Shown here in pieces: positions 11,710 to 60,219 of a stretch of 64,000 nucleotides of DNA; position 1 is the first letter of the stretch, and each line of letters starts with the position of its first letter. The stretch lies in the NCBI GenBank assembly GCA_000091205.1, contig AP006494.2; one strand, 5' to 3'. Below the pieces are notes generated by a model. It searched no databases and had not been told where the DNA came from. It saw only the letters and a list, made by a program, of their open reading frames with translations. The translations under genes and the position numbers were made by a program. Source of the stretch: Cyanidioschyzon merolae. Taxonomy: Eukaryota.

Positions 11710-11823
11710 TCTTTATCCAGTCCAACAAATCGGACGTGGCTATGCGCTCTGTTCACACACGAAAGATAAAGTGTACACCTGTGCAGGGTTAAGAAAAATT
11801 TGACGTTTGTTCACGCGCTTCAG

Positions 11824-25410: not shown

Positions 25411-25461
25411 TAACGCTGAGCACCTCCCTAACTATACTGGGAGCGAGCTGTTTTTCGAGAC

Positions 25462-27479: not shown

Positions 27480-28260
27480 TAAAACAATATATATCATGAA
27501 CCGAGTCGAACGCACACTGCATCACTCTTCGCTTTTTTCATGTACAGCAATCTCAAATCACACATTCTTCAAGTATTAGGTCGTTCTGTTTGAGGCCAAC
27601 TGGTATGTGCAGTGGTTCGCGCTGCCAGATCCACTACTGAAAAAACTTGACGTCGCCCCTTGACACGCTCCTCACGCGCTCATGCCAGGAGTTTTACTGA
27701 ATTTGTCACATTAAACAATCGATTCTGTTCGCAATGCAAATCCGCCTCTCTATTTGGTCGTCGACGAAACCGGATTCCCCATCAGGTTGATAGGTCTGAC
27801 GGGATATGCTCCCGGAGGCTCTCATCCGTTCCGCTTGCATGGAATAGAGCCTCAGACTCGCTCTTCAATCATCGCGAGGATCGCTTCCAGAGGAGCGTGC
27901 GCCACTGCTTTCCACGAAGAGAGCTTAGACAGATCGAATTTTCTCGAATTGTTTTGCAACCTGGATATTCCTTCTGTTCCATGTTTCATCATGGACGACA
28001 TTGCGTTCCACAAATCCTCGATCGACTGGTACAGTGTGCACATGCGCATGCTGCTGATAGAGTACTCGTCGATGTCATTGTATGCAAGAAGCTCTTGATC
28101 ATAGTGTACTGCGCCGTGCTTAGATACGAAGGAGCGTATTCGAAGAAGCCTTCTATACCCGTCAAGCGTATGCGCCGAGCGATGAAGCACGTGTTGATCC
28201 ACCATAGTGCTGTGCTCGGAGGAAGAGAGGCGGTGCATGTATGATTACGCCTGCCAACAG
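27480..28260 (+). mobile_element. Diverged DDE_3 (IS630/Tc1-like) transposase relic, copy 4
   Basis: ORF 27754..28098 reads MVVDETGFPIRL (classic DExGF), GYAPGGSHPFRLHGIEPQTR, CFIMDDIAFHKSSIDW. Aligns with the IR1 copy at about 50-60% aa identity. Confidence 0.6.
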
Positions 28261-31111: not shown

Positions 31112-32413
31112 ATGGAAGATATGGGAAGTTTTTTGACGGTAGACGAGGCCTGTAGAGCAGTCTCTGGGCCGCGGTCGTTCTTGAAACGGCTCCGCACCAT
31201 TCTCAGTGCTGAAGTGGCTCTGCTGAAGGCGCTCGTCAAGTCTCCTTTCGAAAAGCGGCTTGTGTCTCTACGGGACGGCGCTTTCATCAACACGCTGGTG
31301 CTAAACGAGCACCAGACTGAGAAACCAGTACTTGTTCTTGCGCACGGCTGGGGCTCTGGCTTGGGTTTCTTCGCCAAGAACCTTGACGCGCTCGCTGGTG
31401 CATACCGCATTTACTGTTTTGATTGGATTGGAAGCGGAGGTTCGTCACGTCCCAAGTTCGACACAAGCATGAACGTGGCCGAGTCCGAGGATTTCTTCTT
31501 GCGACGCTTTGATGAGTGGACGAAGCGAGTCGGTCTGGAGAACGAAAAGTTCATTCTCGCGGGTCACTCGCTTGGCGGCTACCTCGCCGCCGTCTACGCG
31601 CTCCAGCACCCAGAGCGTCTGCGTGGCTTGGCGCTCATCAGTCCGTTCGGAGTTCCGGATGGGAAAGAGTCACAGAAGCGATCAACGACAACTGTTAGCT
31701 CCCATCCGACGGGAGCACAGGCCCCTCGTCTGACGATGATCGCCACAGCGTCTGAGGCGACACCGAATAACTTGCAAAGCGAACCTGCGAACGATAGCCA
31801 CCCTACTGCCTCGGCGGATCGCTTGCCAACGAAATACCGAGTCTTGCGAGGCGTGCTTCGCACGTTTTGGAAATTGAATGTAACGCCTCAGAGAATTCTG
31901 CGATGGACGTCCACTGCTTCGACCTCCTGGAGCCATGACCTGATATCCAAGTACATCTCGCGTCGATTCGCATCTTCGATCACCAGTGTACGAGAGCGCC
32001 AACTCCTTGCCGATTATTTGTACGCGATTTCAGTTGCCCCAGGCTCTGCGGAGTATGCGATCAAGACGCTGATGCATCCCGGAGCCTGGGCCCGTGCACC
32101 CTTGATGGATCGCTTGACAGCGCTCTCACCGACGGTACCAGTGGTCTTTCTCTACGGAGCAAACGATTGGATGGATCCGGATGCTGCCAGGACCCTGATT
32201 GACAAGGCGCGGGAACTTGGAAACGGAAATATGTGCCTTCAAATCGTACCGAATGCGGGTCATTATCTATTTATAGATAATCCGCAAAAGTTCAATGAGA
32301 TATTTCTGCAGGCGCTGAGCCGTCAGATACTCGGATCCGCGGTCGTTTGTGCAGATGTTACCAACACGCAGCGCTCCATTTCCTCGTCCGTGCTGAACTC
32401 GTCGAAAGCATGA
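31112..32413 (+). CDS. Alpha/beta-hydrolase ABHD4/ABHD5 (CGI-58)-like protein
   Basis: HGWGSGLGFF; ILAGHSLGGYLAAVYALQHPERLRGLALISPFG (nucleophile elbow GHSLGG); ANDWMDPD; VPNAGHYLFIDNPQKFNEIFL. ATG start. 3' end overlaps the helicase 3' end by 91 nt. Confidence 0.75.
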   Translation: MEDMGSFLTVDEACRAVSGPRSFLKRLRTILSAEVALLKALVKSPFEKRLVSLRDGAFINTLVLNEHQTEKPVLVLAHGWGSGLGFFAKNLDALAGAYRIYCFDWIGSGGSSRPKFDTSMNVAESEDFFLRRFDEWTKRVGLENEKFILAGHSLGGYLAAVYALQHPERLRGLALISPFGVPDGKESQKRSTTTVSSHPTGAQAPRLTMIATASEATPNNLQSEPANDSHPTASADRLPTKYRVLRGVLRTFWKLNVTPQRILRWTSTASTSWSHDLISKYISRRFASSITSVRERQLLADYLYAISVAPGSAEYAIKTLMHPGAWARAPLMDRLTALSPTVPVVFLYGANDWMDPDAARTLIDKARELGNGNMCLQIVPNAGHYLFIDNPQKFNEIFLQALSRQILGSAVVCADVTNTQRSISSSVLNSSKA

Positions 32414-35400
32414 ACGGAGAGTTTTGTTGGCTTGCATGCGGCGACCTCGGGGATCTTCAAGCAAAATCTTTGCAGTCCAAATCGATAGAAAACGCGGTTC
32501 GCGTAGACAACCGTATCGGAGCCGGCATCACGGACGACGAGCCAAGCATGTCGCTTCCTGTACATATGCTCATCCACGGGTTTCTCGGTTCGCTGCCCCA
32601 ATGCTATGTCAATACAGTGAACGTCTATGACGCGTTTCCGTCTTGTCCCTTGCTGTATTGCTTGCTGGACCCGAAGGGAACCTCCTTGCCGAGGATGAAG
32701 ATGAAAGCAAGCATCGTTTCTGGATTGAATGCTCCCGCCAGAATCCACCATCCCCGCCGCTGCCGCCAGTTTTGCTTGCAGGTGACGTCCACGTGCGCGA
32801 CGTTCTATCCGGTGCGGCTCGTTTCCGAGATCCGCTTGGCGCTCATGCTGCTCATGCTGCTCATGCTGCTCATGCTGCTCGTGATCCATCTGATGCAGGT
32901 AACTCGTACAGCGCTCCCGGTATTCGGCACCCATGTGATGCTCAATCTGTGCTATGCGGCCATCGGGCTCCTCGCCAACAGCATCATCCAAATCGTCTGC
33001 AGGCTTAGTGAGGTGGCTCTGCTCTCGTGATCGCAACGGCGAGCCACTAACCATAAGCTCGAACGAAAGCGTTCGAGTGATCTTGTGGAACTGGCGGAAA
33101 GCGCTCCAACAAAGACGGGCGAGACCCGTAAACACCAGTGCCGGTAGTAGTCGCTCCCAAGCGCCACTGAGCTCCTCCAAAAGCCTCCGCCAGCAAAACT
33201 GTGACGTCGGTGGCGATCTCAGCAACCATATCAGCAGTGTGCGTACAAAGAGAACGGGCTGCACTTTCTTAGGACGCGCTTTTGGTCCTCGAATGGGCCA
33301 CAGCGAATGAGGGCGTCCAGCTTCATCGCTCGATGCGAGGTCGCGCGGCAACCAACCAGGACCGAGTTCGCTAACCAGTGTTTCAGCGAACATGTCCAAA
33401 AGCGCACTCCTGGTTATCACCCTACCTGAAAACCGATCTAAAATCGTACGCGCTGTCTGCACTTCGATACCGAAACAGAATGCCAGCCGGGGAGCGACGA
33501 CATCGCGACAATCAAAGCGCCCGTCATTGCGAATTCGGAGCAAGTTGCATTCGCTGATAAGTTTTTCTGTGACGAGTCTGGTCATTAGAGCTATTCTGTC
33601 GAGCTCGCTGCCCAGCGATATCACTTCGCACAGCGGCCTCGCAGCCGTATGCTGCAGGTAACGGTAGCGGTAGAGAGTGCGGCTCATGAGCTCAGCAACC
33701 TGCTCGGCAGTCTGCAGTGTGCCCCGTGCTACCTGATGAACAATAAATAACTCCCAGAATAGATCAGCGACAGAGTCTATGACTGGAGGCCAATTCGCCG
33801 GCAGCTGCATCAGTCCCTCAAGATGCGGTGGCACTAGGACCGAAACCGGACCTCTGCATATCCTGGCAAAGTAGCGACAACTCCAACGGAACAGGTTCTC
33901 CCGTGGGCGCGACGATGCCTGCGCAAAGCCGTTGCCCACCATGAATGCGAAGGCGTATTCATTGCCATCGCTCGGGAGCAGGAGTAATTCTCCGATCTCG
34001 ATGACTACGACGCGGACATTGGTGTGCCCCGGGGGTGCACCTGTCTCGTAGCTGGTACTCCTCGTGGGTAACCAGATGCCACGCTCGAGGAGCGCTCGCT
34101 CCGCGGCGGTTAACGACGCTGCCAAACGTGCAGGGCACTCACTGCGGTACGGACTCTGTCGCGCTAGCTCTGCCCCAAGTAAGAGCGCATCGCGCATGAC
34201 CGCGCAAACAGCGACGAATTGTGGTCCTCGAGGAGGCGCTATCCGACGAAATGCACGCCAGAAGCGCTTCGCCACCAGCCGAGGCCGGTTCAGAAGTGCC
34301 TCGTCCGCAGTGGTAATGAGCGGCGAAGCCTCACCCGGAGGTTGCCACTCAAACTGGAGCATTCGAGACGGATCCAGTCCAAGCCAGCGCAATACTTGGT
34401 CGACATTCTGGAAATGCTCCGAAAAAAGAACCTGCTCAGCTCTTGCCAGATTCATGAGCAAAAACTCGTAGCTTGGATCCCATGATACAGACTCGAGGTC
34501 GTCCAGAAGCCACAGTGGTGCTTGCACACGGAGCTGTTCCGACTGCATGCTATGCACGAGCGAGGCAAAGTGTTTGGGGTCACCGATCAGGAAGCGCGCT
34601 TCGTGCTCATCGTCGTCAGCGCATGAAAGTTTTCTATGCCACTGCGGATCAATGCTTAGCTCCGCACAGCGCAACTTGCAGCTTTGTACGAGTTGGCGAA
34701 AAACTTCACGATGCGAGCGATGTGGAGACACATAGCACACGAGGCGTTTTTCACGCGCTACCGTGAGGCAAGCCGCGAGGCACCGGATCCGTTCGGGCCG
34801 GAACGGTATCGCAAACAATACCCCAGGTCGCTGTCCCGGAGCGCAGTCCATCACCATTTTGAGATAGCCTGGAATCAGGGTCTCACAGGCCGCCGCTAGA
34901 CGACTAAAGTCGTGAAATACAAAGCGGCCGATCTCGGGGGCAATTCGGTTATCGTCAACTGGCCACGGGAGGTCGCGCAAACACTCAGCTTGCAGAAAGT
35001 CGTCAACCAGATGCTCTTCGGCGGCAATTCTCCAGAAAGCGACTGAGGTTCGCTGCCACGGTGGAACCGAACAGCATCCGACAAGGTGATATTTCGCTTC
35101 ACGGAGGACCAGGCGAGCAGCGAAAAAGGCTCTTTCACCAGTGGCATCCTCGAGGGATACCCAGAGCGCTTCCGTACTGTCGATACAGGAGCTATCCTGC
35201 AGCGCGATGCGACATTCGAAACGCAACGTGTCTGCTGAAACGGGTAGAAGCGCGCTCTCGAAGGCTATCCAGGAACGAACGGCACACTGCTGACGCCCCA
35301 GAGCGCTGCATAACACCGCGGGAGGCATCCAGTCGCCGACTGAAGGCGAAAAGCAACGCAGCGCCTCGGTTTCGCTGTGTTGCTCTGGCTGGCCTTTGCT

Positions 35401-37791
35401 GTTGTGCGTCTTACGGGGTTGCATGCCGGAGCTTGTGCTACCGCTCTGATCGTTGCTGCTTCCGCCCCTGAGGGCGCCTTGCAGAATACGCGTTTGTTGA
35501 TGCTCAAGTTTCTTGGCGAGTAGCAAGCTCAAACGCATGGGTACAGCCATTCCCAAGGTTGCAGAAAGCGCATGCACCGCACGCAGCATCCGCTGAGACT
35601 CTTCCAGTATCGAAGAGCAGTCCTGCGATAATGCGGGCGAAGAGCTTAGGCCCGTTGGCAGGACTGCGGCCTGCAACAATGCCGAGATTTTGAGGTCTCT
35701 GTCAGGATCCCAAAGCGGTATCAGTAGGCGCCAAGAGAACCTGCGCAACTCTCGGCTTTCGCTTTCCCGTGGTAGACTGAGGTTCCGAAGTGCAGGTGAG
35801 GCAACTGCGAGCAGATGGATCAACTCTGGGAGAGCGCCTGTTGGGTGAAGGTATGCCTCTATTGTCCGCAGCGTGTCGTAGGGAAGCATAAACGCAGAAG
35901 CCACGTTACCGCGAGCTGTTACAGTCATCTCTAGATTTTCGCCGTAGCGCAACAGCTCATTCCGGGCGAGCTCTTTCGCCACCGAATGGCAAAGTCGGAG
36001 CCGAACGCCCCAGAGGGAAACATCTTCTCCATCGGCAGGCCGCTTGCTCGCGAAATGCGGCATCCACTCGAGAGATGGATTCCGCAGCATTCGAACGAAG
36101 AGGAATGTGTATTTGAGCCACTCTGCTGCCTCTTCGACGGTGCTGAGGGAGCCGCCCGCAACTTCGGCCAACAAGCTATCTGCCAACTGCGGTATGAGAT
36201 GCGATTCTATGGGGGCCTTGTGCGCTACGACAGCAGCATACAGCGGCGCTTCCGGTTCGGTTGTGATGATCACGCCTACACCACGCTGGTGGAAGGGGTA
36301 GCGGCCCGCTCTGCCGAGCATCTGCAGGACGTGCAGCGGGGCGAGTTGGACAGTCTGACCCTCCTCACTGTCGTAGTACTGCGTGCCTTTGATGACGACC
36401 ACGTTCGCCGGCAGATTGACTCCCCATGCTAGCGTTGCGGTAGATATCATAATACGGAGGCTGCCCTGCAGAAACAATTGCTCCATGAGATGGCGGATTT
36501 CTCGCGGTAAACCGGCGTGATGGACTCCAATGCCTTTCTTCACCGTGGCGAGAATCTCACCAAAGTTTTTGAAATGCTCACGGATTGAAGGCGAAAGCCA
36601 TTCCGTTTCCCGCCTTTGTAGGATGGGAGCGTTTTCGCCGTCTGCAGCGTTAAGCAACCAGTGCGCGGTCTTCAGCGTATCTGCTCGCTCGTGAACGAAA
36701 ACCAAAACCTGCTCCATCTGCTGTACGGCAAATTTTTTGACCTGGAACCACAAAGCATGGTTCATAAGTTGATCGAACCGGGTCTTACTTAGAAGGCCAA
36801 CGCGATGGCGAAGTGCCACCAGGCGCAGCTCCAGGGGGCATGGACGTTCTCTCTCAGAGAAGACGAACACGCCCTCGTGAAGCCTGGCGCGAATGAAGAC
36901 CGCCACGTCATCGTAGTTTGGAAGCGTTGCGCTCAGGCCAACAAGCCGTACTCGATAGCCGAATAACGCTGTTTCATGGTGTAGACGAGCTACGCATCTC
37001 TCAAGGACGGGCCCTCTCTTTGGATCATCGAGAACGTGGATCTCATCAATGATGACAATCTTCAGAAAACGTAGCAAAGGACGTTCGTTGGCTCTTCTAG
37101 TGAGAACATCCCATTTTTCAGGAGTTGTCACCAGGATATGGGAGCGCCACAAGTCGCGATGACTCAGACGCTGCTCCCCGGTACACTCCGTTACCAAGAT
37201 TCCATAGGTTCGCAGGCGAGCGCTCAGCGAACGCTGAAGCTCCCCCACGAGCGCCCGCATTGGAGCAATATAAACACATTTGAACTCTTGCAGCTCGCCA
37301 CCGCATTCCTCGAATAGGGTGCGAAGAATCAGGGCAACGGCAATATCCGTCTTGCCGGACCCTGTTGGTGCGCAGACCAGAACGTTTCCATGCATCCGTA
37401 ACGCCCGAGCAAGAACGCTGGACTGGACAGGATTCAGGCTTGCTATATGCTGAAAGGCAGGTTTCATGTAACCCGCTAGATCATCGACAGCAAATGAACG
37501 ATCATTCAATAGCGCACTTTCAGTTGTCTCCGGCCTTTGAATGATCATTTCGCTCCACTCGGAAGCGTCACCGACCTGACCAAGAGCGCTCCGCGCCGCA
37601 GACTGTTCAGAGCATGTACCGCTGAACAAGTCGGCGCTAACAACAGGCAAAGCCGCCTTTCGTCGCACGGCTGCAGCACATATAACGCGGTATTCTGGAG
37701 TGTCTTGGAGTATAGCCTCCATGAAATGTGAGCTTTCGCCGGGAGTCGGGGGCGACACCTCGATACTTGCTAGTTCAGGTTCCTGAGGCAT
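32323..37791 (-). CDS. Ski2-like DExH-box helicase with Sec63 domain (Brr2/ASCC3/HFM1 family); one intact cassette plus a long degenerate C-terminal region
   Basis: APTGSGKT (Walker A), DEIHVLDD (DExH), LGRAGRYPFHQRGVGVIITT (motif VI), WLKYTFLFVRMLRNP (Sec63 signature). Track ORF starts with a GTG at 37818; first ATG is 37791. Confidence 0.85.
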   Translation of the reverse strand: MPQEPELASIEVSPPTPGESSHFMEAILQDTPEYRVICAAAVRRKAALPVVSADLFSGTCSEQSAARSALGQVGDASEWSEMIIQRPETTESALLNDRSFAVDDLAGYMKPAFQHIASLNPVQSSVLARALRMHGNVLVCAPTGSGKTDIAVALILRTLFEECGGELQEFKCVYIAPMRALVGELQRSLSARLRTYGILVTECTGEQRLSHRDLWRSHILVTTPEKWDVLTRRANERPLLRFLKIVIIDEIHVLDDPKRGPVLERCVARLHHETALFGYRVRLVGLSATLPNYDDVAVFIRARLHEGVFVFSERERPCPLELRLVALRHRVGLLSKTRFDQLMNHALWFQVKKFAVQQMEQVLVFVHERADTLKTAHWLLNAADGENAPILQRRETEWLSPSIREHFKNFGEILATVKKGIGVHHAGLPREIRHLMEQLFLQGSLRIMISTATLAWGVNLPANVVVIKGTQYYDSEEGQTVQLAPLHVLQMLGRAGRYPFHQRGVGVIITTEPEAPLYAAVVAHKAPIESHLIPQLADSLLAEVAGGSLSTVEEAAEWLKYTFLFVRMLRNPSLEWMPHFASKRPADGEDVSLWGVRLRLCHSVAKELARNELLRYGENLEMTVTARGNVASAFMLPYDTLRTIEAYLHPTGALPELIHLLAVASPALRNLSLPRESESRELRRFSWRLLIPLWDPDRDLKISALLQAAVLPTGLSSSPALSQDCSSILEESQRMLRAVHALSATLGMAVPMRLSLLLAKKLEHQQTRILQGALRGGSSNDQSGSTSSGMQPRKTHNSKGQPEQHSETEALRCFSPSVGDWMPPAVLCSALGRQQCAVRSWIAFESALLPVSADTLRFECRIALQDSSCIDSTEALWVSLEDATGERAFFAARLVLREAKYHLVGCCSVPPWQRTSVAFWRIAAEEHLVDDFLQAECLRDLPWPVDDNRIAPEIGRFVFHDFSRLAAACETLIPGYLKMVMDCAPGQRPGVLFAIPFRPERIRCLAACLTVAREKRLVCYVSPHRSHREVFRQLVQSCKLRCAELSIDPQWHRKLSCADDDEHEARFLIGDPKHFASLVHSMQSEQLRVQAPLWLLDDLESVSWDPSYEFLLMNLARAEQVLFSEHFQNVDQVLRWLGLDPSRMLQFEWQPPGEASPLITTADEALLNRPRLVAKRFWRAFRRIAPPRGPQFVAVCAVMRDALLLGAELARQSPYRSECPARLAASLTAAERALLERGIWLPTRSTSYETGAPPGHTNVRVVVIEIGELLLLPSDGNEYAFAFMVGNGFAQASSRPRENLFRWSCRYFARICRGPVSVLVPPHLEGLMQLPANWPPVIDSVADLFWELFIVHQVARGTLQTAEQVAELMSRTLYRYRYLQHTAARPLCEVISLGSELDRIALMTRLVTEKLISECNLLRIRNDGRFDCRDVVAPRLAFCFGIEVQTARTILDRFSGRVITRSALLDMFAETLVSELGPGWLPRDLASSDEAGRPHSLWPIRGPKARPKKVQPVLFVRTLLIWLLRSPPTSQFCWRRLLEELSGAWERLLPALVFTGLARLCWSAFRQFHKITRTLSFELMVSGSPLRSREQSHLTKPADDLDDAVGEEPDGRIAQIEHHMGAEYRERCTSYLHQMDHEQHEQHEQHEQHERQADLGNEPHRIERRARGRHLQAKLAAAAGMVDSGGSIQSRNDACFHLHPRQGGSLRVQQAIQQGTRRKRVIDVHCIDIALGQRTEKPVDEHMYRKRHAWLVVRDAGSDTVVYANRVFYRFGLQRFCLKIPEVAACKPTKLSVHAFDEFSTDEEMERCVLVTSAQTTADPSI
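32826..32882. repeat. 9-bp microsatellite (ctcatgctg) x5 inside the helicase CDS, encoding (QHE)n on the minus strand
   Basis: gctcatgctgctcatgctgctcatgctgctcatgctgctcgtg; translated track shows HEQHEQHEQHEQHE. Confidence 0.6.
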
Positions 37792-38684
37792 TCTGTTCGC
37801 CTCCAGCAAAGTTTCCACAAGGGAGCGTTTGGCAAGAGTCGAATAACAGCTGAAGCTTGCCGGCTTGTGCAGGCTGTCTGGAGCGTTTGCGCCGGGGTCC
37901 CGAATATGTGAACCGCTACGCCTCTGCGTTCGCAGAAAGCGGGCACTAGATCGCAGTCCCCGAGCAAGCTAAACGAGTTCCAATGATGTCTTTGAGAACG
38001 AATCACGAAGACTTTGTGTAAGTTGACTTCTAATCACGCCCCAACTTGAGCTGCAGGCGTGCCGCGCAGCGGCGAGTTTGTCCGAAACTGCGTACAGGCC
38101 CTAGCGTGCGTGCCAGTAAGCGCCGAACCCACAGTAGGACATGGAGCGTCCTCGCCGCATGTCCAAGGTTCACACACCGGACGTCGAACGCTTAAATTTT
38201 GCTATTTGCGTCCAGAACGTCGAATTTTCGTGCGAAGCGGCTCGTTTCAGTCACGGTAGCGTAAGACTGTTCTACGCACTTGAAGAGTACGTAGTTCTGC
38301 TGTGGGGGGCACTGCGCAAGAAAGCGCTCCAAAACTTGTGGGCTATTTAAGCCCATATAAGCTAATTTTAATCCCTAGAGTATATTATTGTCATAGAACG
38401 AGGATGCCCAGTAGCTGTTTGCCGGCATTTGCCGGCCGCTGATGATGACGTGCGTCGACAGCCGATTTCTTTCGATGCGCGGTGAGACAGCGTCATTGGG
38501 CAGTCGCGATTCATATTTTTCGAAGCAGTGTGTGGAGGTCACAGCGGCCCAGTGAGGCTGCCTCACGTCCCTAGGGTGACGCTTACTGCGAGCCTCGTAA
38601 GTACTTGAAGCGTGCGGCTGCTTTTTCAGGCGGGATACATACTGATTCTTGCAATTAGAGGACCTTCGCAAGTCGCTGTGGGCA

Positions 38685-40487: not shown

Positions 40488-40779
40488 GAAAATACGGGTT
40501 TTAGCGGTGCCCTCGTGGGTGCCCCGTTTGAACTAGAACAATCGATCTTTTTGATACAATCGTATACAGGGGTCTTACAATTTTTCAACTCGATCCTGTT
40601 TCACCTCCGTAGTGTTTTGCAGCAGGAGATCGAAATCTCTGTGCAATGTACCCTATAGGTCTTATACGAATCGCTTGTAGGATATATGCTTTACCATATG
40701 GTGCAAGGAGGCTTGGATTCCTCCAGCGGCTCAGTCATACCACAGTACTCTGATGCTCGAGGAAAACTGAAAGTAGCAA

Positions 40780-42060
40780 GTATATGCGCTCTGTGCGAAC
40801 TCCGATATTCTCAAAGACTGCTTGCGATCAACGGCACGGAAACAACCCGCTGATCACCTTAAGGAATGCAAGTATGATGACAGTAGCCGCCCTAGGTGTC
40901 TATGTTTCTCAACAGCATGTTCGTGTAGTCTGTAAAACACTGGGACAGAATCACAAAAAGTCTTGCTAAACGCACTGCCATCTTCCACCGGAATCGCAAC
41001 GACAGTGTTCCTGGAACGTCGCTATCCGTTTAAAGCGTAGGGATTTCGGTTTTGGTTTTACAGTCGACGAGACTTTTTTCGGGCGAAATGGACAGTACAT
41101 ATTTGAGTATTCGCGGAGAAGCGAGCCCGTTGTATACCCGACGGAACCCGAAGAGAACTCGGATATCATTATCTGTTCTAACTGCAGTGCATATACTTGG
41201 CGGCCTCAGTCCCGCCCTTAGACAAGGCTCAAATAATAGCACGCAATACGCCGAATCATAGAAGACTCTTCCCTGACATCTTGCGACGTTATTGTATTGG
41301 AAAACGTGGCATTGCGCCATTCCACTTGCGTTCGAGCTTTTGCAGAATCTATCGGGGTGGAGCTGTTTTTCATTCCGCCATTTACCCCGTGGCTCATCTC
41401 CATCGGAGGAGTGTTTTCTATCGTGAAACGGAATGACCGTTTCGCTGGGTGGATCGCTGAAGTGTTCAGCACACGGTAACACCGCGGCTATTTGTCTTTC
41501 TTCCACAAGTCCTTTTCCCTCCGGAAAGGTCTTCACGCCAGGACATCAACAAGTGCATTCATTCGAAGAAGTAAAAAATCCAAGAGAAAGCTATGGACAT
41601 GGAAGGCGAGGATCCTGGAAGCCGTGTGTCGCCGGCTTCGACCAAAAACGAAAAAATCCTCTCCTCGCCGACCATTGAGCGAAGAAGAGCAAATAACGAA
41701 GATGGAAAAGGGAGATATGCGAGAAATGGTGTTTGCCCAGCGGGACGATGACGAGGCTGTAGGCACACAAAGGGCATGAGTTTGAGGAGTCCTCGCAAAG
41801 ATGCGTTCAACCAGCGGCTAGAACCGCATGGAGTTCATGAACCGAGACTCGAAAGCTGCTACGAATATCAGGAGATATGCGGTGCTGAAGACGAGACCCG
41901 CGGGGCTGACAAGAGCGAGCCAACTTTCTGGGACAGCCTCTCAGACTCGAAGTGTGCAAGGAAAAGCTGAAGCCGATAGCAGGGACCCGGTCAAAGAAGG
42001 CCGGAACGCGTCTGTGAGTAAATATATACATTTATCCTCATTGTTCTTGGGACATTTTTG
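40780..42060 (+). mobile_element. TnpB/Fanzor-like element relic, copy B (inverted relative to copies A and C)
   Basis: 41828..42061(+) reads EFMNRDSKAATNIRRYAVLKTRPAGLTR, the RuvC-III D-x-NAA-x-NI motif. 41433..41678(+) ICLSSTSPFPSGKVFTPGHQQVHSFEEVKNP parallels copy A ICLSSISPYPSEKVPTQRHKRVRSFSKIRN. 41030..41536(-) EPCLRAGLRPPSICTAVRTDNDIRVLF parallels copy A GPCLRARLTPQNIPTAARIDNDFVLIEF. 41533..41766(-) RILAFHVHSFLLDFLLLRMNAL parallels copy C RVLEFHIHSFPLHFFLLQMNAI. Confidence 0.5.
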
Positions 42061-42186
42061 AACATTTTGATCCCTTACCTGCCGCCGCGGTGCAATTTCG
42101 CAGCTCGAAGCTTATCGGAGTCGCCTAAATTCGCGTGCGACGTTTTTTGCGCGAGGTGCAAGTAAACTTCAGAAAAGCCACGAGTA

Positions 42187-44034
42187 ATGCGTCATGATGC
42201 AGGACTTGCTCTTCCCTTCGTGACCACTGTCAACCATCTTTTCGCTGCAGACCATACCGCGCCAAAGTTGCGTTCGGGCTTAGCTTGCGCGCGGCTCAGC
42301 GGGCCTGCAGACCACCGGCGGCGGCGTTGCTCGCTGTCGCCTCGCGCGGCACGGACGCGTGCACCCAGCTTTGGACGGCATGCCAGCATGGACTTGGGGC
42401 AACCCTCAGACACGAAGACCGAGGACTCATTAGGGAAAGATAAGGCGGAGAAAGGACTACAAAAGATCCGTAGGGCTTTAGTTTCTGTATCGGACAAGGC
42501 ATCTTTGCGAGAGTTTGCGCAGTTTCTGGTTGGCCACAATGTTGAAATCATATCCACGGGCGGTACGGCAGAGAAACTCCGCGGCTATGATGTGCCCGTA
42601 ATAGATGTCAGTGAGTATACTAGCTTTCCAGAGATTCTTGACGGGCGCGTGAAGACCCTGGTTCCTAAAATTCACGGAGGTATCCTGGGTGTTCGCGGTA
42701 ACGCCTCACACGAAGAAGCGATGAAGCTCCACAGCATCGAGTACATTGATCTTGTTGTGGTGAATCTGTACCCTTTCGAAGAGACGGTGCGAAACGACGG
42801 GAGCTATGAAGCATGCATCGAGAATATTGACATTGGGGGACCAACGCTCATCCGAGCTGCTGCGAAGAACCACGCGAGCGTAACCGTCGTCACTGACGTC
42901 CACCAGTACTCAGACGTTATGGCTGATATGAATGATCATGATGGGTGTACAACTTTGTCCCTTCGGAAACGCCTTGCGGCTGTTGCGTTCTCTCTCTGTG
43001 CGTCGTATGACAGCTCGATTGCGGCGTGGTTCATGGAGGGTCTCGGGAAGCCGTTTCCGGACCGAATTACGATAAGCGGACGTTTGAAGCAGCGACTGCG
43101 TTATGGAGAGAATCCTCATCAGCCAGCTGCGTTTTATATGGACATGAGAGGAACGATCTGTCCAGGCGTTGCAACGGCCGAACAGGTTCAGGGCAAAGAG
43201 CTTAGCTACAATAACATCCTGGATACGGATGCGGCGTTCCGTCTCGTGAGCGAGTTTACAGAGCCCGCATGTGCGATTATTAAGCATTCTAATCCCTGCG
43301 GTTGCGCCACTGGTGTCTCGACCGAAGATGCCTACCTGAGGGCTCTTGCCTGTGACCCGATTTCTGCTTTTGGCGGTATCGTTGCGTTGAACAGAAAGAT
43401 TGATAAAGCAGTTGCAGAGCAGATCACCAAGGCGTTCACTGAGGTGGTGATCGCGCCAGATGCATCCGCGGAAGCTTTGGAGGTTCTTTCTGAGAAGAAG
43501 GCGACCAGAGTTCTTCTCACGGGAGCTATGCCGGATCCGCGGGCGCAACTGCAGAGTTTTCGATCAGTCATGGGAGGCTTTCTTGTCCAGGCTCTGGATA
43601 CGAAGATGGTTACAACGGAGGAGCTCAAGATTGTTACCAAACGCACCCCCACGGAAAACGAAATGCGCGATTTGCTTTTTGCCTGGAAAGTTTGCAAGCA
43701 CGTCAAATCGAACGCAATTGTTTATGCTAGAGATGGAGCCACTGTCGGCATTGGCGCGGGACAAATGAGTCGCGTAGATGCATCGAGAATTGCAGCCTGG
43801 AAAGCGCAGGAAGCCTCGCGCCAGGCCGAGGAGGATACTAGTCGCACGGCTGGATCTGTCGTCGCCTCTGATGCCTTCTTTCCTTTCGTGGATGGGCTTG
43901 TTGCCGCGGCGGATGCCGGCGCAACCGCCGTGATTCAACCAGGCGGGTCCAAGCGTGATGCGGAGGTTATCGCTGCTGCCGATGAACGAGGGATTGCGAT
44001 GGTCTTTACCGGTATTCGACACTTTTTACACTGA
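42187..44034 (+). CDS. purH: Bifunctional purine biosynthesis protein PurH/ATIC (AICAR transformylase / IMP cyclohydrolase) with ~95-aa N-terminal extension
   Basis: [64 protein letters not shown] (MGS-like IMPCH domain), then an AICARFT domain through the C-terminal GGSKRD..FTGIRHF. ATG start. Confidence 0.9.
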
Positions 44035-47699: not shown

Positions 47700-48260
47700 A
47701 ATCCATACTGGAAGCTTCCACTCTTCTAATTTCCTTACGTATACCATATGCAAAACGTGCATTATTCAGGATTTCGATCCTTCTGTTTCAAAGCAGCTCA
47801 TTGGTGTACGAATGCTCGCCACTGGATTGACAAAGAGAAAACTCGACGTCGATCCTCGATGCCTTGTTCACAAGCTCATGCCGAAAGCTCTCTGGACTTG
47901 TCTTGCAAAGTAATCCTTTCTACTTGAAAAATGAATCCTCCAATTTTTGCGGCATGCGACGAAACAGCGTTCTACAAGAGCATGTGGTCCTTCACAAAAA
48001 CTGCCCTCGGACGCTCTCGTCTCATCTGTTTGCGTCGAAAGCGCTCTGGGACTCGTACTTGAGTTATAGCAGCGATCGCTTCCAATGGAGAGTGCATCAC
48101 AGTTTTGTAAGTAGCGAGTGCAGACAGATGATTATATCCGAGTTGGTCTCCAGCCTTGATTTTGTCTGCGGTACTTTTTTTCATCGTGAACAGTATCGGG
48201 TAGAAAAAGCTTCTATCGAATGGGACATCGTACGCTTTTGAGTGCAGCGGATAATGCACT
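47700..48260 (+). mobile_element. Diverged DDE_3 transposase relic, copy 5 (C-terminal part)
   Basis: ORF 47864..48241 ends FHREQYRVEKASIEWDIVRF, parallel to ALHKSAIEWDNVRL / AFHKSSIDWYSV of the other copies. The antisense frame conserves HSPLEAIAAI vs HAPLEAILAMI of copy 4. Confidence 0.45.
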
Positions 48261-48957: not shown

Positions 48958-51285
48958 TTATGGTGCCACTCGAAGGGCGTTCCCGGATGCTTTAGCGGTT
49001 GCCCTCTCACCTGAGACGTACATTTCATCGATGACATGGGCGTACTTTTCTTGTACGACACGGCGCTTAACTTTCAGGGTTGGGGTGAGCTCGCCGCCTT
49101 CCACGGTAAGCTCGGTGGGAAGGATTCGAAAGTACTTGATCGTTGCATACGACGGCAGTGTCGCGTTCACTTCATCGATGTAATGCTGAATCACATCAAT
49201 GATTCGCTTATCTCTGGAGAGTATATCGGGGCGAGACTCCGTAGATTCTATGCCAATCTTAGAGGTCAACGCCGGGAGCGCACCCTCATCTAGCGTAATC
49301 AGTGCAGTGCAGTACGGTTTTCCGTCGCCAATAACCACTACTTGGGCTATGCCGTCGAACGTTTTAAGCCGCGCTTCTGTTGGCTGAGGCGCGATGAATT
49401 TCCCGCCTGATGTTTTAATCAGATCTTTCAGGCGATCGGTGACAACAAGATAGCCGTCCTCATCGAAACTCCCAACATCACCGGTGTGCAAGAACCCAGC
49501 ATTGTCAATAACTTGGGCAGTACCTCGTGCATCATTGTAGTAACCAGCGAAGACGTTATCGCCTTTCGCGAGGATTTCTCCATCCGCACCAAGAACTACT
49601 TGAATCCCACGGAGGGGCAGGCCCGCGGTCCCCGGCTTGATGGCGCCTTTTGGCGTCAGCGCGATGACACCCGTGCTCTCGCTCTGGCCATACAGCTCCG
49701 CGATGTCGATACCTATGCTCCGGAAGAAGCGTGAGATCTCTGGATTCAGCGGCGCTGCTCCCGAGGCGAACGTATGACATCGATCGAGCCCAAGCAGCGT
49801 CAGGATTTTGCCAATGATGTGCTTCTGGTAGAGGCGCCACTGGACGGTGGTCCAGATGGCTGGCCGTTGTCCGCGTATGCTGTTGCGACACTCACCAATG
49901 GATGCGCCGTTTCGGAGTGCCTGGCTGATGACGGCGCGTCGAAGGAGCGCCTCCGAGGCGAAGCGTTGCTTGAGCGCGGACGCAAACTTTTCCCATACCC
50001 TTGGCACGCACAGGAACAGGGTCGGACGCACCTCCGCCAGGTTGTTCTTCACTGTAGCAAAGCTCTCCGCAAAATAGACGGCATTCGCATCATAGATAGC
50101 AAGCAATTCACCTTGAATGCGCTCCGCGATATGGCAGAGTGGGAGAAACGACAGTGTAATATCGCCGCCGTTTGAACCTACACAACGGGATATTTCCTCT
50201 GCAATGAAATAAAGGTTGCGATGTCGATAGCATGCTCCCTTGGGTTTTCCCGTTGTCCCCGAAGTGTATACGGTCATGCAGATTGCCGACGGCAAAATGG
50301 CTCTCGCTTGGCGTTCAATGTTCGTTGCTGCGCTCTCAAAGTGCCGTCGGCCTTTTTTCAATAGTTCGCTCCACGAAATATTTTTCCAGTGTGGTTTCCG
50401 ACCGCATCGAGGCGAAACTTCTCGTGTGGTATCATTCATGAGCACGACGAGCTGAAGCTCCCCAAGCATTTCCGCAGTATCTAGCAGCTTTGCGTACTGC
50501 ATTTCAGAGTCCACGAAAACAACTTTCGCTCGAAAATTCTCACAGACAAACGCAACTTGCTCCGCTAGATCGTTCGGATATAGACCGGTGGTACAGCCTG
50601 CAAGACACATGACCGCCAGGTCCGCGATAAGCCATCTGGGTGAGTTCGAACCCAAGATGGCAGCGTGGTCGCCGGCCTCGAACCCGCATTGCCTCAGGCC
50701 GTTAGCGATTTGACAAACCAGTCTACCGTACTCCTTCCACGAGATGGATACCCATCCGTCGCCTTCTTTCGATGCCAGGGCAGCAGAATCCGCACAGTTT
50801 CTCCGAATCCCATGAGCATTATCGAAAAAAAGGTTCAATAAGGTTTTCGTTCTAGTCTCCTCTTGAGTAAGCGCGAGTTGTGGGGGCTGCTCTCCCTGTA
50901 AACCGGGAGAAAGGAACGAGTCGCTTGGAGACCCTTCAGGATTCTGCGTGAAGATTCCTGCAAGGAATGGAGCTGCATTATTCGGCTTCTTCGAATCTTC
51001 AACCTTGCCTAACGTTCGCTCACGAGTTACCCGATGCGCCATGTTGTACGACCTAGACGCTGAGCCCTGAGGCGTCTGGAACGTGTTCTGTGCCCTGGGC
51101 TGCAACCACAGCGACGCAAGCGTGTCATTGCCGTGCTGTTCGCAATTTCCCTGCACGCCCAGGTGAAGGTTGCTGCTGAGCGATCGCATAGGCGCCGGCC
51201 CCGGTGTCGGGCTTGCTGCAGGGGTAACAAAAGCATAACCAGAGTCACTTGGCACGTCACTGGTACGAAAATGTTTCATAACCAT
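48958..51285 (-). CDS. Long-chain fatty-acid-CoA ligase (acyl-CoA synthetase, AMP-binding superfamily) with low-complexity N-terminal extension
   Basis: YTSGTTGKPKGACY (AMP-binding P-loop), FLHTGDVGSFDEDGYLVVTDRLKDLIKTSGGKFIAPQPTE (motif II/III), length and linker typical of LACS. ATG at 51285; the true start could be a downstream Met (homology begins after ~aa 150). Confidence 0.85.
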   Translation of the reverse strand: MVMKHFRTSDVPSDSGYAFVTPAASPTPGPAPMRSLSSNLHLGVQGNCEQHGNDTLASLWLQPRAQNTFQTPQGSASRSYNMAHRVTRERTLGKVEDSKKPNNAAPFLAGIFTQNPEGSPSDSFLSPGLQGEQPPQLALTQEETRTKTLLNLFFDNAHGIRRNCADSAALASKEGDGWVSISWKEYGRLVCQIANGLRQCGFEAGDHAAILGSNSPRWLIADLAVMCLAGCTTGLYPNDLAEQVAFVCENFRAKVVFVDSEMQYAKLLDTAEMLGELQLVVLMNDTTREVSPRCGRKPHWKNISWSELLKKGRRHFESAATNIERQARAILPSAICMTVYTSGTTGKPKGACYRHRNLYFIAEEISRCVGSNGGDITLSFLPLCHIAERIQGELLAIYDANAVYFAESFATVKNNLAEVRPTLFLCVPRVWEKFASALKQRFASEALLRRAVISQALRNGASIGECRNSIRGQRPAIWTTVQWRLYQKHIIGKILTLLGLDRCHTFASGAAPLNPEISRFFRSIGIDIAELYGQSESTGVIALTPKGAIKPGTAGLPLRGIQVVLGADGEILAKGDNVFAGYYNDARGTAQVIDNAGFLHTGDVGSFDEDGYLVVTDRLKDLIKTSGGKFIAPQPTEARLKTFDGIAQVVVIGDGKPYCTALITLDEGALPALTSKIGIESTESRPDILSRDKRIIDVIQHYIDEVNATLPSYATIKYFRILPTELTVEGGELTPTLKVKRRVVQEKYAHVIDEMYVSGERATAKASGNALRVAP

Positions 51286-52640
51286 CGAGTATATATATAC
51301 CTACCCGCAGACGCCTCCCAGCCTTTTTACCTCTCGACTGTTATATCGGCTTCAGCCTGGCCTCGTAGATCCTGAGCCTGAGTCGCTGCCTCACAGCATC
51401 GGATCGCGTCAGCGCCGTAGGTCTCGTCTTCATCGGCTGAAATCGATGGTGGCGTTGAGGTCTCGGTTCACGAACTCTGTGCACTCATGGCCTCTGGTGG
51501 AACTCATCAGTGCAAGGAGTCCTCGAACGCATGCCCTCTGTGCGACTAGGGTCTCGTCATCGACCCGTCGGGCAAACGCTTTTTCTCGCCTATCTACTGC
51601 CTTCCTCTCCTTCGTGCTTTTCGTCACTTGCTACTTTTTGCCTTCGATGGGTGATGAGAAGAGGATTTTTCCGTTTGTTTTCGGCAGCGGGCGATACCGG
51701 CCCTCCAGGGTCCTCGAATTCCATATCCATTCCTTTCCCTTGCATTTTTTCTTACTGCAAATGAATGCAATTCCCTACGCCTTTAGGTGGGGACATTTCT
51801 GGAGGGGGGTGGCTTTTGCGGAAGAAAGATGAATTATAGCCCGCTGTCGCCGTGTGCTGAAAGCTTCAGCGATTCGCACAGTTGAGCGATCTTTACCTTT
51901 CTCGATATGAAAGACTTATCTGATGAGGTTTAATCACGTAGAGTACGGAGAAATGAAAAGCAGCTCTACCCCAACACATTCGTCGAAAGCTCGAACGCAA
52001 GAGGAATGGTGAAATGCTGCGTCTGACCGTAGAGGGACGCCGCCAAAGGTCAGAGGAAAGTCTTCTATGATTCGACAAAGTGGGTGCTGTTGTACGTGCC
52101 TGCTCTACGGGTGAAGCTGAAGGAGCCAAATCAATCCACCGCAGCTCGAACAGAGGATGATGTTGTCGTTCTCATCGTGCTCGATCGGACCTAGAACGAT
52201 CTCCCTCTCCGCGAATGCCCAAACATGCACCGGCCGTTCCGTCCGACGCACGTCTCATCGACTAAAACGCACGAACTGACGTCTCTCTGCTTTATACGGA
52301 TAGCGACGTTTCAGGAACGCTGTCGATGCAATCACGATGGACGATGCCCTTGGGTGAGTTAGGACTCTTCTGCGACAGTGTCCCAGGGTTTCCAGGACCA
52401 TAGGAACAAGCTGTTGAGAAAACGGAGACACCTGTGACGGCTATGACCATATCCTTTGCTTTTCTTAAGATGATCAACGTGTCGTTTTCTACCATTGACG
52501 GCAAGCAGTCTCTAAAAATATCTGTATTTGCCACAGAGCGCACATACTTGTTTCTTCCATTGTTCCTCAATCATCAGAGTCCTGTGGTATGACGGACCTG
52601 AAGGAGGAATGCTGTCCTCCATGGACACTTCAGTAACGAA
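51262..52640 (-). mobile_element. TnpB/Fanzor-like element relic, copy C
   Basis: 51430..51627(-) RACVRGLLALMSSTRGHECTEFVNRDLNATIDFSR (C-x-x-C then D-x-NA-x-I). 52292..52570(-) MVIAVTGVSVFSTACSYGPG (RuvC-I-like hhIGVDLGVxxFATLSDG with Asp lost). Blocks at 52066 (ctatgattcgacaaagtgggtgctgttgta) and 52480-52630 align to copy A. The 3' tail (rc of 51262-51440) aligns to the tails of copies B and D. Confidence 0.5.
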
Positions 52641-52924
52641 CATACCCCACAGGCAATTCGTCTAGAATCTGCAGAGTATATTACATAGGGATCCCGATCT
52701 GCTGCGATGCAACGCACCAGGAGTGAAACAGAATCGAGTTGACAGTCTCCAGTTCTGGGACGGGGATAACCAGCGGCTATGGTCTAAGCTGTTGCAGCTG
52801 CGACTGCGTTCCAAATACCTATAAGCTCGGAGGCCGCCCTGGAACGTGCTACTGAATGAGCGCTTTAGAGGTAAGCTGAATGATTTGTTACGAGTCTGTT
52901 CCCTGTTGCGCTCTGTAGCGCCTC

Positions 52925-56053: not shown

Positions 56054-56488
56054 ATGCGCTCCTCTGTTTCATGCCCAGTATTGTACGCTCCAATCACCGG
56101 CTTCTTCGCGCGAGCCATTTGGCGAGTACTCTGTCGGAGGCACCGTAAAGAGCATGGTTTCGCATTTGATACGGAATTTGTGGAACTCGATGTTGCCCAA
56201 AATGAAAAAGCACCGGAAGGAAGCCATAGGCTGGAGATCAAGTCGACATATCTCGATCCGTCTGCGCCCGTATCAGACAAAACGGTTGCGCATTATCCAC
56301 AGGAAGCCAGCGCTGCGATAACTCAACTCCGAGCGCGGGACCTGTTTGCTTTCAAACAGAGGAGGCGGATGCCTTTGGAAGCGTATCTCAAGACAGGCAT
56401 CGTGCTGCCGTTGAATGCCGTCTCCTTGGTGGCCAAAAATAAACAAATCTTGGTCCTTCTGAGCAGAATCGATTATTTGACGCGATAG
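56054..56488 (+). CDS. Hypothetical protein, possibly L7Ae/L30e-like fold
   Basis: PLEAYLKTGIVLPLNAVSLVAKNKQILVLL weakly resembles the L30e/L7Ae core (GKxVLGxxxxxKxIxxGKAKLVILA). Track start 55988 is a GTG. Confidence 0.25.
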   Translation: MRSSVSCPVLYAPITGFFARAIWRVLCRRHRKEHGFAFDTEFVELDVAQNEKAPEGSHRLEIKSTYLDPSAPVSDKTVAHYPQEASAAITQLRARDLFAFKQRRRMPLEAYLKTGIVLPLNAVSLVAKNKQILVLLSRIDYLTR

Positions 56489-58462
56489 TTTTAGAGAACT
56501 TTCAGTAAGAGTTCTTGAATATGTCCCCAATGGAGCAGGTCGAAGTTTTTCCTCGTCAATCCAGTGACGTGCATTGCTGCGTCCGTGGATCACATTGAAA
56601 GAGAAAGATCCAAAACTTGAAACGTATTTGATTTAAGCATGCCAAACCTGAGAAAAGGAGAAGCGTGGAGACTTGTACGTAAGCATTGAATGCTCGATTT
56701 CGGTCATTCGACGAGCCCTCCTTTGGGGGCATCGCAAATCATCTCGGATCCCGCAAATGAAAGAGTTCCGGCGGCTACAAGTCCAGGGAGCCACCCAAAA
56801 ACGCCTCCGAGAATCCCAAAACTATTATTGAATTCGTAAGCACGCATGGCTTCACTTCGAATGCCGAGGCCTTACATCCGAACAGAGTTCGAGAAATCGA
56901 AAACCATGAAGAGAGCGAGCAGTGCTCTCTTCCATTTTGATAGAACCCGGGTCATCGATGCCAAAAACTCGGTGCAGCACTTTCGGATTGTATGCAGCTA
57001 TGCACCCAGTTGCTTTCGAGAAAGCGTCCATTATGCTGCACTCTACCCTAAGGTTCCATTACCCATATTTTCTCTCGGAGGTAATGGTCGTTTTGTACGT
57101 TCTATGTGCGCCAAGTGCATGCCGTGAACATCCGCTGTATGGCCTAAACCGCTAGTGCGGATGCAGCATCGGGACAGTACGGCTTTGCCTTACAACTGAG
57201 GTCGTCGGCTCGAGGCGTGCTGCTCTTGACACAAGGTCGGGATTCATAATCATTCTGGGAGCCTGCAATCTGCGCTGATAGACGTCCTGCCTGCGACAGC
57301 GCGAAGCGATATACTAGGAGATGACTGCATCGTGGGCGACGCCCAGACGCAGCACATCCGCTCCTTGCCCCAGTATAAACGGCTTCGCAGACGAGCTGCT
57401 CAGGTCTCACTATAGCGCAAGCCACTGCCGAGTCTCACTGTAGCGCGAGCCAGGCAGCCTCGTCCGGGTTGCGGGATCTCCCTACTGGAAGGTATACTTT
57501 CGCGAATGCGGCAAACTTTTTCCTCTTCTCACTTTTACCGAAGAGGTGGGGATTGTTATCTCGTCGCTAGTTTGTGCCTAGTTTCTGTTCTTTTTTCTAT
57601 AATGCGCTCGATACGTGCACATCCATATCTCGCAGGCATTAGACACGACGCATATCTCACCGCTGATGGGAAACGCGACCCCTCTCAGATGTAGACTCGC
57701 ACCGGAAACACGCGAAGCAGCATGTGGAGCATGCACTGTTGCTGGGGACGAGGTCCATGTACGACAACATCATGGTCTACCGATATTAAGCGTGTTGCTC
57801 TAACGCATGCTTTCTATTTGCGTTCAAGTCCTAGCAAAATATAGTGTTTGTTCGGAATTCTGCTTCAGCCCACATGCGAGCGTGTCCAAGAGTTTTTTCG
57901 TTTTTTTAGCATACGCGTTCGAAGTGCGCTCACTTTCAAAAATCAAAATTCAAGGAAAAGTTACGGACATACAAGTCCAGGATCCTGGAGGCCCAGTGTC
58001 GCCAGGTTCGACACGAAATGAAAAACAATGCTGAGTCCAGAGGAACAGGAGAAGACGAAGAAGCAGATGCAGGAGGCCAGGCGTCAAAAGCTGCATGAGA
58101 AGCGACAGTATGACGAGATGGCAATGGAAGCCTTTCTTCTACGTCAAATAAATGATCCGTACGAACAAAAGTTGCGAGAGGCTATCAGAAACCGTGTCGA
58201 GTCGTACTCCATGAGTATTATCAAGGCTTCGTCTTGGCTAATGCGTAAGGTGAGTAAGATGTACCATGACGTTACGGGCATCAAAATAGTCGAGGTTCCG
58301 GAGGAATTTTTCAACAAGACATTTGCTCGCCACCCCATGTTTGGCACAGAGTAGGCGTCGACGAGAAATGAGCGAGTGCATGCCCTCTACGAAAACCACG
58401 CTGAGTACCGCTTCAACGGTATTCGATACAGGGGTGATTCGCGTATTCACGAATAGGGAGCA

Positions 58463-60185: not shown

Positions 60186-60219
60186 CGTTTTGCAGAACAA
60201 GCTGAACAAACCTCACGGG

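Follow-up and report, generated by a model that had tools for sequence, protein, structure and literature searches.

Fanzor1 relics with their right ends near gene starts in a Cyanidiophyceae red alga, and a possible promoter role for those ends

The 64,000-nucleotide stretch of DNA analysed here (the window; positions count from its first letter) contains, by self-comparison, one repeat family in four copies, A to D, each ending in a 3' portion, the tail, that points at a host gene. In copy B the tail occupies positions 41880-42072 on the plus strand, ahead of the purine biosynthesis gene purH. This locus raises the question of what such a tail is and why it should lie beside a gene start. 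An original prediction, made from the DNA of the window, held the tail to be the conserved non-coding end of a TnpB-like relic, which was either co-opted as a promoter or 5' untranslated region (UTR) or carried there by biased insertion. Here, we report that the tail belongs to decayed Fanzor1 transposons and that, in a younger sister family of Fanzor1 elements, the corresponding right end lies closer to host start codons than the left end, or head, does.

Identity of the repeat family and anatomy of its tail

Comparison of conceptual translations identifies the relic family as Fanzor1, the eukaryotic TnpB, because a profile of 46 diverse relatives matched only solved Fanzor1 structures in the PDB: 9cf0 (PpFz1, E=2.7e-22), 8gkh (SpuFz1, E=1.2e-17) and 9cer (GtFz1, E=1.8e-11), with no further significant match to this database. 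The predicted TnpB-like character of the relic was borne out by this result. A narrower family profile matched only 8gkh in the PDB, at E=0.042. The conceptual translation of copy D (57945-60195, plus strand), a full-length decayed Fanzor1 relic, has 44 metagenomic homologs (best E=1.2e-196; the closest 49-56% identical), for which the precomputed Pfam label is DUF8286 only, and an exhaustive profile search recovered 3381 relatives. Intact relatives carry the RuvC-I, RuvC-II and RuvC-III motifs GADPGNTNII, VDEFRTS and FVNRDFNAAIN; in copy D, the open reading frame (ORF) remnants of which extend over three frames (58028-60140), these have decayed to GGAGPRNMNII, MDDFRKS and FVNRDFHAAIN. Between RuvC-II and RuvC-III, where a C4 zinc finger would be expected, the family reads THHELGC...EKC and VRGLLALVSTT instead of the usual CxxC pairs, with RGLLWC in distant members. 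An AlphaFold model built on the family alignment was too poor for a fold search (mean pLDDT, the predicted local distance difference test, 43; pTM, the predicted template-modelling score, 0.26). The DNA of copy D is 72-77% identical to copies of the sister family.

A TnpB relic had been proposed for every copy, which is correct for copy D and for the 3' part of the other three, whereas A, B and C have as their body, ~1 kb long, a probable relic of a DDE_3 transposase. Copies A (14801 to ~13457, minus strand), B (40585 to ~42072, plus strand) and C (51260-52742, minus strand) each combine such a relic with a deleted Fanzor remnant; B and C are 69.9% identical across 1477 nt, and A carries further gaps relative to both. 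In copy B the decayed Tc1/mariner-type (DDE_3) relic spans 40585-41575 on the plus strand. The frame-2 consensus of the three copies reads VDETFF...LLENVALHHS...GVELLFIPPYTPW, with a PPY.PW (PPYTPW) motif also visible, and its translation matched Pfam DDE_3 (PF13358) at E=1.8e-5 and 25.1 bits, below the cutoff of 28.6. The Fanzor1 remnant that follows (41575-41879, plus strand) joins ~25 N-terminal codons to the C-terminal part through an internal deletion and retains a decayed RuvC-III motif (FMNRDSKAATN; FMNRDSKAATNI at ~41834-41869) that aligns with FVNRDFNAAIN of the intact homologs. Positions 41575-41655 of B match 57945-58025 of D, the region around the start of the long decayed ORF in D, and 41778-42019 match 59903-60145; between these matching segments lie ~1.9 kb in D and 120 nt in B. 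On these alignments, the ancestor of A, B and C was an internally deleted derivative that was still mobile and linked to a DDE_3 transposase. No terminal inverted repeats (TIRs) were found in A, B or C, in which left end and right end are unrelated, and no target site duplication (TSD) was recognisable for these three copies.

The tail, judged from its sequence, is the last ~45 codons of the Fanzor gene followed by the ~55-nt non-coding right end of the decayed transposon. In copy B the first part (41880-42017, plus strand) comprises the last ~45 ancestral Fanzor1 codons and the ancestral TGA stop at 42015-42017, which in copy D lies at 60141-60143. A tblastn search with the C-terminus of the protein P0012 matched 41807-42014, and 41880-42014, with the translation LKTRPAGLTR..GQPLRLEV.KEKLKPIAG.RSKKAG.RL, aligns codon by codon with the C-terminus of intact relatives (...LETRPPESTRENFLGQPLKVELYE..GRSKKTGRRL). 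The non-coding right end of copy B (42018-42072, plus strand) aligns with the right ends of C (51304-51260, following a tail at 51432-51305), D (60144-60195) and A, and with those of relics of this old subfamily found in metagenomes; common to all is the pattern GCGTCTG..ATAT..ATGATTG..GAAC.TTT.TCGTTTTGCTG, and copy B terminates in ..GGACATTTTTGAACATTTTGAT. Within the right end, copy B has a TATA-like run, taaatatatac, at 42019-42029, copy C holds TATATATATA at 51291-51300 and copy D has taaatatac at 60155-60163. An ancestral TATATA, ~35-45 nt ahead of the right end, is common to B, C and D.

Most of what had been taken for a non-coding tail is thus former coding sequence, and only the ~55 nt at 42018-42072 are non-coding. 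Nor is the tail better conserved than the ORF, as had been supposed: in 100-column windows of a three-copy alignment the tail gave identities of 0.49-0.67 and the body 0.57-0.76. The repeat itself is real; pairwise alignment of the tails yields 74.1% for B and D, 72.8% for A and D, 71.1% for B and A and 66.8% for C and D. For the window, the tail is former coding sequence with a short transposon end and not a specially conserved non-coding module.

Position of tails relative to gene starts

In the window each of the four tails is directed at the 5' end of whichever same-strand ORF comes next, as the original prediction stated. Its argument that four of four is unlikely by chance fails, since B and C lie in divergent spacers, in which a start is faced in either orientation (the head-side starts are at 98 and 183 nt), and the chance for the window alone is ~0.25. 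The separation of 0-130 bp between tail and start holds only with the most upstream start codons; the likely true starts are 70-350 nt from the tails. The distance from copy B to purH (42187-44034, plus strand), put at ~130 bp, is 114 nt if the ATG at 42187 is used and 315 nt if it is that at 42388. Copy C does overlap the beginning of the ORF for a long-chain acyl-CoA synthetase (48958-51285, minus strand), the first 8 codons of which fall in family homology and the first two ATGs of which (51285, 51279) lie inside the copy; however, the ORF encodes 775 aa and the orthologs from Cyanidium caldarium and its relatives only 731-736 aa, so the likely start is M33 at 51189, 70 nt from the element. 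Copy D had been placed ~5 bp from the ClpS ORF (60190-61071, plus strand). The TTG at 60190 is inside the terminal CGTTTTGCAG of the element, and the coding score, positive only past about codon 160, together with the 204-aa C. caldarium ortholog, favours M83 (60436), 240 nt away, over the other ATG candidates at 60220 and 60640. Copy A is oriented towards the epimerase gene (10555-11709, minus strand; one Met only within the first 220 codons), as described, with a start ~354 nt off once an inserted 1.4-kb element (11832-13224) is subtracted. Taken alone, the four window copies are weak evidence and not statistically compelling. The orthologous loci of a related species (L089) and of C. caldarium (L090) showed no relic homology upstream of the same genes, a comparison that gives no insertion date because non-coding DNA is unalignable at that divergence.

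An independent set of sites came from a scan of metagenomes with the Fanzor alignment, which yielded 80 loci; merging of allelic duplicates left 48 unique insertion sites, and placement was counted over 47. They represent the sister family, a younger Fanzor1 family resembling the element CMe-1A, and at one insertion the adjoining host gene shares 82% identity with the Cyanidiococcus yangmingshanensis ortholog. As gene proxies we took non-repetitive ORFs of 150 aa or more, and element ends were set from repeat coverage. Since the genes downstream of the tails are unrelated, ordinary host genes, the sites are independent of one another. The tail faces a gene start at 32 of the 47 sites (p=0.019) and a gene 3' end at the other 15. 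A start codon occurs within 131 nt of the tail at 22/47 sites and of the head at 2/23 (Fisher p=0.0014). Tails are a median of 86 nt from a start, compared with 362 nt for heads (Mann-Whitney p=0.0005), and repeat-free spacers have a median of ~460-490 nt. Where a start is present on the tail side, the tail-side distance is below one quarter of the spacer at 13 of 16 sites, and near-start insertions are tail-first in 14 cases and head-first in 4 (p=0.03). The expectation that other family members would also sit with their tails upstream of genes is thus upheld as a matter of proximity. The occupied spacers are divergent, tandem and convergent in the ratio 12:8:3 (p=0.01), and the placement bias is in part a preference for promoter-bearing spacers. 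Within tandem spacers, the ratio of sense to antisense insertions is only 5:3, so that the signal is an asymmetry of proximity rather than one of pure orientation. Among old-subfamily relics with readable flanks in the metagenome loci, the next downstream ORF is on the same strand in 5/5, and in 9/9 when the window copies are included.

Many ORFs downstream of a tail have no Met besides the first ATG among their initial 120 codons, together with a positive coding score. At three sister-family sites the start is validated: the COPI_assoc and TPT domains begin at residues 15-16 of ORFs whose ATGs lie 25 and 41 nt from the right end, and the ATG of a bicarbonate transporter at locus L036 lies 12 nt from it, with an N-terminus that matches Cyanidiococcus orthologs from two related species, in which the upstream DNA is without the element. 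With the right end 12-41 nt from the validated start of an intact long ORF (L036, L011 and L023), the geometry implies that host transcripts at these sites start in the tail or cross it. At a further locus (L048:870-900), a 660-aa RING-finger host ORF has a single Met among its initial 120 codons, and this lies in the Fanzor terminal hairpin, where the ATG arises by a C-to-T change (GAACGGCG to GAATGGCG); this start codon may be element-derived.

The placement could in principle reflect no more than the tolerance of a compact genome, such that elements survive only in promoter spacers and either end is bound to be close to a start codon, the four window copies are a coincidence and the asymmetry is an artefact of element boundaries or gene calling. 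The window result of ~0.25 by chance for B and C in divergent spacers agrees with this, as do the excess of divergent spacers and the near balance within tandem ones, window spacers of merely 3-205 nt and a young DDE_3 element that abuts gene starts head-first. We nevertheless consider this explanation improbable, because the asymmetry persists for full-length copies with left ends aligned by eye, because the Fisher and Mann-Whitney tests both separate tails from heads, and because the tail hugs its gene in most spacers with a tail-side start and is followed by a same-strand ORF in 9/9 old-subfamily copies with readable flanks. Chance and tolerance cover the window alone and not the asymmetry of the larger set. 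The original alternatives, promoter or 5' UTR co-option on the one hand and biased insertion on the other, are together supported by the proximity seen at the 47 sites, which do not choose between them.

Possible causes of the placement bias

The guide (omega) RNAs of Fanzor and TnpB are encoded at the 3' end of the nuclease gene, overlapping the right end and reading into the flank; in Chlamydomonas the guide RNA crosses the 3' terminal repeat into the flank. The tail coincides with this end, and its assignment to the omega-RNA and right-end region of a TnpB-type element was in this respect well founded. The location, together with hairpins in the right end of the sister family, could suggest that the window tails are kept as a functional structured RNA, either an omega RNA or a regulatory RNA derived from one. 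This we regard as very improbable. A conserved RNA fold did not emerge for the window tails: shuffled sequences folded at least as well as the tail (z=+1.45), and the four-copy consensus fold is weak, with 3 compensated pairs. In addition, there was no Rfam match anywhere in the window, tail identity is at or below that of the body and the Fanzor ORFs of the window are dead.

In the sister family, four right-end hairpins, specified manually, have 77% of cells paired compared with 40-50% in slid controls, and their covariation score was reached by 25 of 500 shuffles; they include G-U pairs on the sense strand. RNAalifold found no structure in a 47-copy MAFFT alignment, in which the inner hairpin arms are apparently out of register. 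The left end also has a hairpin, CGTTTT..AAAACG, followed by TTTA. Conservation over the last 245 nt is highest in the block GAACTATATGAG, which lies ~165 nt before the end. Identity to the consensus is 0.81-0.84 in the tail and 0.89-0.90 in the body, and non-consensus fractions at codon positions 1, 2 and 3 of the tail are 0.120, 0.080 and 0.155, a mild bias. Codon 12 of a 47-codon stretch (alignment A7; 36 codons before the end of the RRLH stretch) is hypervariable between neighbours that are more than 90% conserved: this TNG codon is TAG in 12 copies, TGG in 10, TCG in 7, TTG in 6 and CTG in 6, so that many copies share a premature stop there. The idea that the sequence past it is non-coding RNA only was rejected, as codon positions keep their pattern there and 33 of the 47 copies have an intact frame. 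In the longer elements, of 3.3 kb, the hairpin region of the right end, ~75-100 nt, recurs as a direct copy located ~3.3-3.6 kb upstream of that end (L024:928-1002, L032:4196-4257, L052:682-757 and L085:1239-1305), which could be an internal second right end or the trace of a tandem or one-ended transposition.

The identity of the element, its anatomy and the placement bias are observed; a promoter as the cause of that bias is hypothetical, and takes the following form. The genome is compact, and the elements sit in its short spacers, which bear promoters, their right end beside the downstream gene. Transcription would run outward from the right end into the flank, in the window family from the TATA-like box near that end, and in the sister family from an omega-RNA promoter or by read-through. 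An insertion between a gene and its own promoter would then survive only if it were tail-first, with the tail serving as the de facto core promoter or 5' leader of the gene, and an insertion that hugs the tail-side gene would spare the rest of a shared divergent spacer for the other gene. The GAACTATATGAG block of the sister family and the TATATA of the window family are candidate TATA boxes only. We put the reading in which outward transcription from the tail and selection explain the placement, making the tail a promoter or 5' leader, at a little short of an even chance.

Several observations weigh against this reading. In the window copies the tail does not exceed the body in conservation, so that the putatively co-opted segment gives no signal of purifying selection, and in the sister family the ratio of tail to body identity is slightly lower for tails that abut genes than for other tails (0.913 and 0.937, p=0.04). 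The likely true starts in the window are not immediately adjacent to the tails, and the sense excess in tandem spacers is small. The young DDE_3 element adjoins two starts head-first (8307 and 11709), so that lodging near promoters is not specific to Fanzor tails. Genes were modelled from ORFs, and repeat coverage defined the left ends; the contigs come from metagenomes, perhaps from more than one species, and their sharing an organism with the window is unproven. The promoter role of the tail is one that we infer entirely.

Alternatively, the machinery of the element may favour one set orientation and integrate where transcribed genes have their 5' ends, in which case promoter function would be a consequence of the placement and not its cause; a single-strand (HUH-like or rolling-circle) mechanism acting on the displaced non-template strand at promoters would be one example. 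Consistent with such targeting, the sister family is without TIRs or TSDs (PMC3627910), its sub-terminal right-end hairpins with sense-strand G-U pairs and its left-end hairpin are typical of strand-specific single-strand transposons, the points of insertion are concentrated between -15 and +60 nt relative to the ATG, and two elements are stacked before one gene both at L027 and where copy A adjoins the 1.4-kb element. However, we found no Rep or Y1 transposase alongside the family, and red algae have no reported one; the window family is linked to a DDE_3 transposase instead, neither a target motif nor a TSD is definable, the 15 tails that face gene 3' ends do not conform, and transcription of the host genes from the element would still be needed. 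On balance, oriented targeting is the main rival reading, though it appears unlikely. Identification of the elements as Replitrons or Helitrons was considered and rejected, because the family has no linked Rep protein and Replitrons have not been reported from red algae.

The two stacked arrangements are as follows. At L027 (4258-4413 and 4718-7565) an old Fanzor relic is followed by a younger element and then by a host gene, and in the window copy A (13457-14801) and the younger element at 11832-13224 stand one after the other ahead of the epimerase gene. Such stacking suggests repeated use of a promoter-proximal site.

Returning to outward transcription from the tail, its broadest form would be that Fanzor1 elements of Cyanidiophyceae become fixed or integrate with the guide-RNA end a few to ~100 nt upstream of start codons, such that dozens of host genes are transcribed from or through the right end, and that the omega-RNA promoter or scaffold acts as their promoter or 5' leader. 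We advance this general statement tentatively and hold it to be doubtful.

Host genome, other repeats and related elements

The window comes from the nuclear genome of a hot-spring red alga of the Cyanidiophyceae that has few introns. Genes for E2F/DP, APC8/Cdc23, TAP42, a Brr2-type helicase, a plastid-type ClpS, DegP and PurH are present as uninterrupted long ORFs (Pfam), and the E2F/DP, APC8, TAP42 and Brr2 genes in this uninterrupted form mark an intron-poor eukaryotic nuclear genome. Identical genes recur on short contigs from several metagenomes and sequencing runs. Among named relatives C. caldarium is nearest, with 60% identity in the acyl-CoA synthetase (an AMP-binding protein by Pfam) as against 47% for Galdieria, and gene order is partly conserved with this species. 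Compactness is extreme in this genome: the start codons of several divergent gene pairs are only 3-205 nt apart, and an alpha/beta hydrolase gene (31112-32413, plus strand) and that of the 1831-aa Brr2-like helicase (32323-37818, minus strand) converge with a 3' overlap of ~90 nt (32323-32413).

The purH product (AICARFT/IMPCHase) matched PF01808 at 7.8e-126; it has Met at residues 1 and 68 and a low coding score over codons 1-80, and an exact-protein look-up with the two candidate starts gave no match. The ORF on the head side of copy B is a different gene from the NuA4 gene found next to purH in C. caldarium. The ClpS domain was assigned by Pfam to residues 211-278 of its ORF. A metagenome contig (L004) corresponding to 8155-11990 of the window has an identical epimerase gene with other downstream neighbours, including an ATP-synt_C gene, which indicates a strain-level rearrangement or a second genomic context.

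The young 1.4-kb element, which carries a DDE_3 ORF (12152-12901), is present in two inverted copies (6925-8314 and 11832-13224) that are 99.2% identical, and metagenome contigs end at this repeat. In both copies the 5' side of the transposase adjoins a host start codon: the ATG of a 689-aa ORF (start 8307) falls within the last 8 nt of one, and the epimerase start at 11709 is 123 nt from the other. Fragments related to the DDE_3 element and 65-73% identical occur at 1-432, 7487-7783, 12360-12662, 27772-28072, 47745-48163 and 56121-56420; their scatter over intergenic spacers indicates several generations of mariner-like relics. A second inverted pair, of 1.7 kb (15092-16827 and 23678-25413; 99.65% identical), is without a Pfam match and encloses TAP42, DegP and other genes (~17-23.6 kb), an arrangement that could mediate inversion.

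Fanzor1 relics in Cyanidiophyceae and chimeras of mariner and Fanzor1 are already known kinds of element. CMe-1A of Cyanidioschyzon merolae is a ~3-kb Fanzor1 family without TIRs or TSDs, in ~150 old copies (Bao & Jurka, 2013, PMC3627910). The sister family resembles it, by description and with no CMe-1A sequence compared, in the Cyanidiophyceae host, the length of ~3 kb, a Fanzor1 ORF as the only one and many old copies ~80% identical to the consensus (PMC3627910). In contrast to CMe-1A, copies A, B and C of the window are internally deleted behind a DDE_3 relic, and the right end differs after GCGTCTG. The same source gives no placement of CMe-1A relative to host genes (PMC3627910). It describes the mariner-plus-Fanzor1 chimeras PGv-1 and PUl-1, in which, as in the window copies, a DDE transposase gene precedes a Fanzor1 gene in one unit (PMC3627910). 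PGv-1 and PUl-1 have TIRs and TA duplications, whereas no TIRs were found in the window copies, whose DDE_3 match is below the Pfam cutoff.

The right end also resembles those of TnpB (IS200/IS605) and Fanzor elements with omega RNAs, where the guide RNA lies at the 3' end of the nuclease gene and extends into the flank; here, the right end is known from DNA alone, and RNA structure finds some support in the sister family rather than in the window relics. Promoter-targeting or promoter-donating transposons, such as Tf1 and Ty in yeasts, Helitrons and long terminal repeat (LTR) promoters, insert just upstream of genes and can supply initiation. The present case differs in that the element is a Fanzor1 DNA transposon with its guide-RNA end proximal to the gene, and any targeting or promoter activity is predicted from the DNA. 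Full-text searches of a limited set of literature turned up no report that places Fanzor right ends preferentially beside the starts of host genes.

The placement observation generalises beyond the window and so makes a testable and moderately surprising hypothesis, one that the complete assembly of C. merolae, an experimental model, and the assembly of Cyanidiococcus yangmingshanensis make cheap to test. It bears on how eukaryotic Fanzor guide RNAs are transcribed and on the effects of Fanzor elements on their hosts. Outward firing of the right end into host genes, if it occurs, would locate the omega-RNA promoter and offer a clue to omega RNA transcription in eukaryotes. If true, the proposal would also amount to an undescribed link between transposons with RNA-guided nucleases and host gene expression, and would mean that a compact algal genome tolerates, and perhaps uses, Fanzor elements as replacement promoters.

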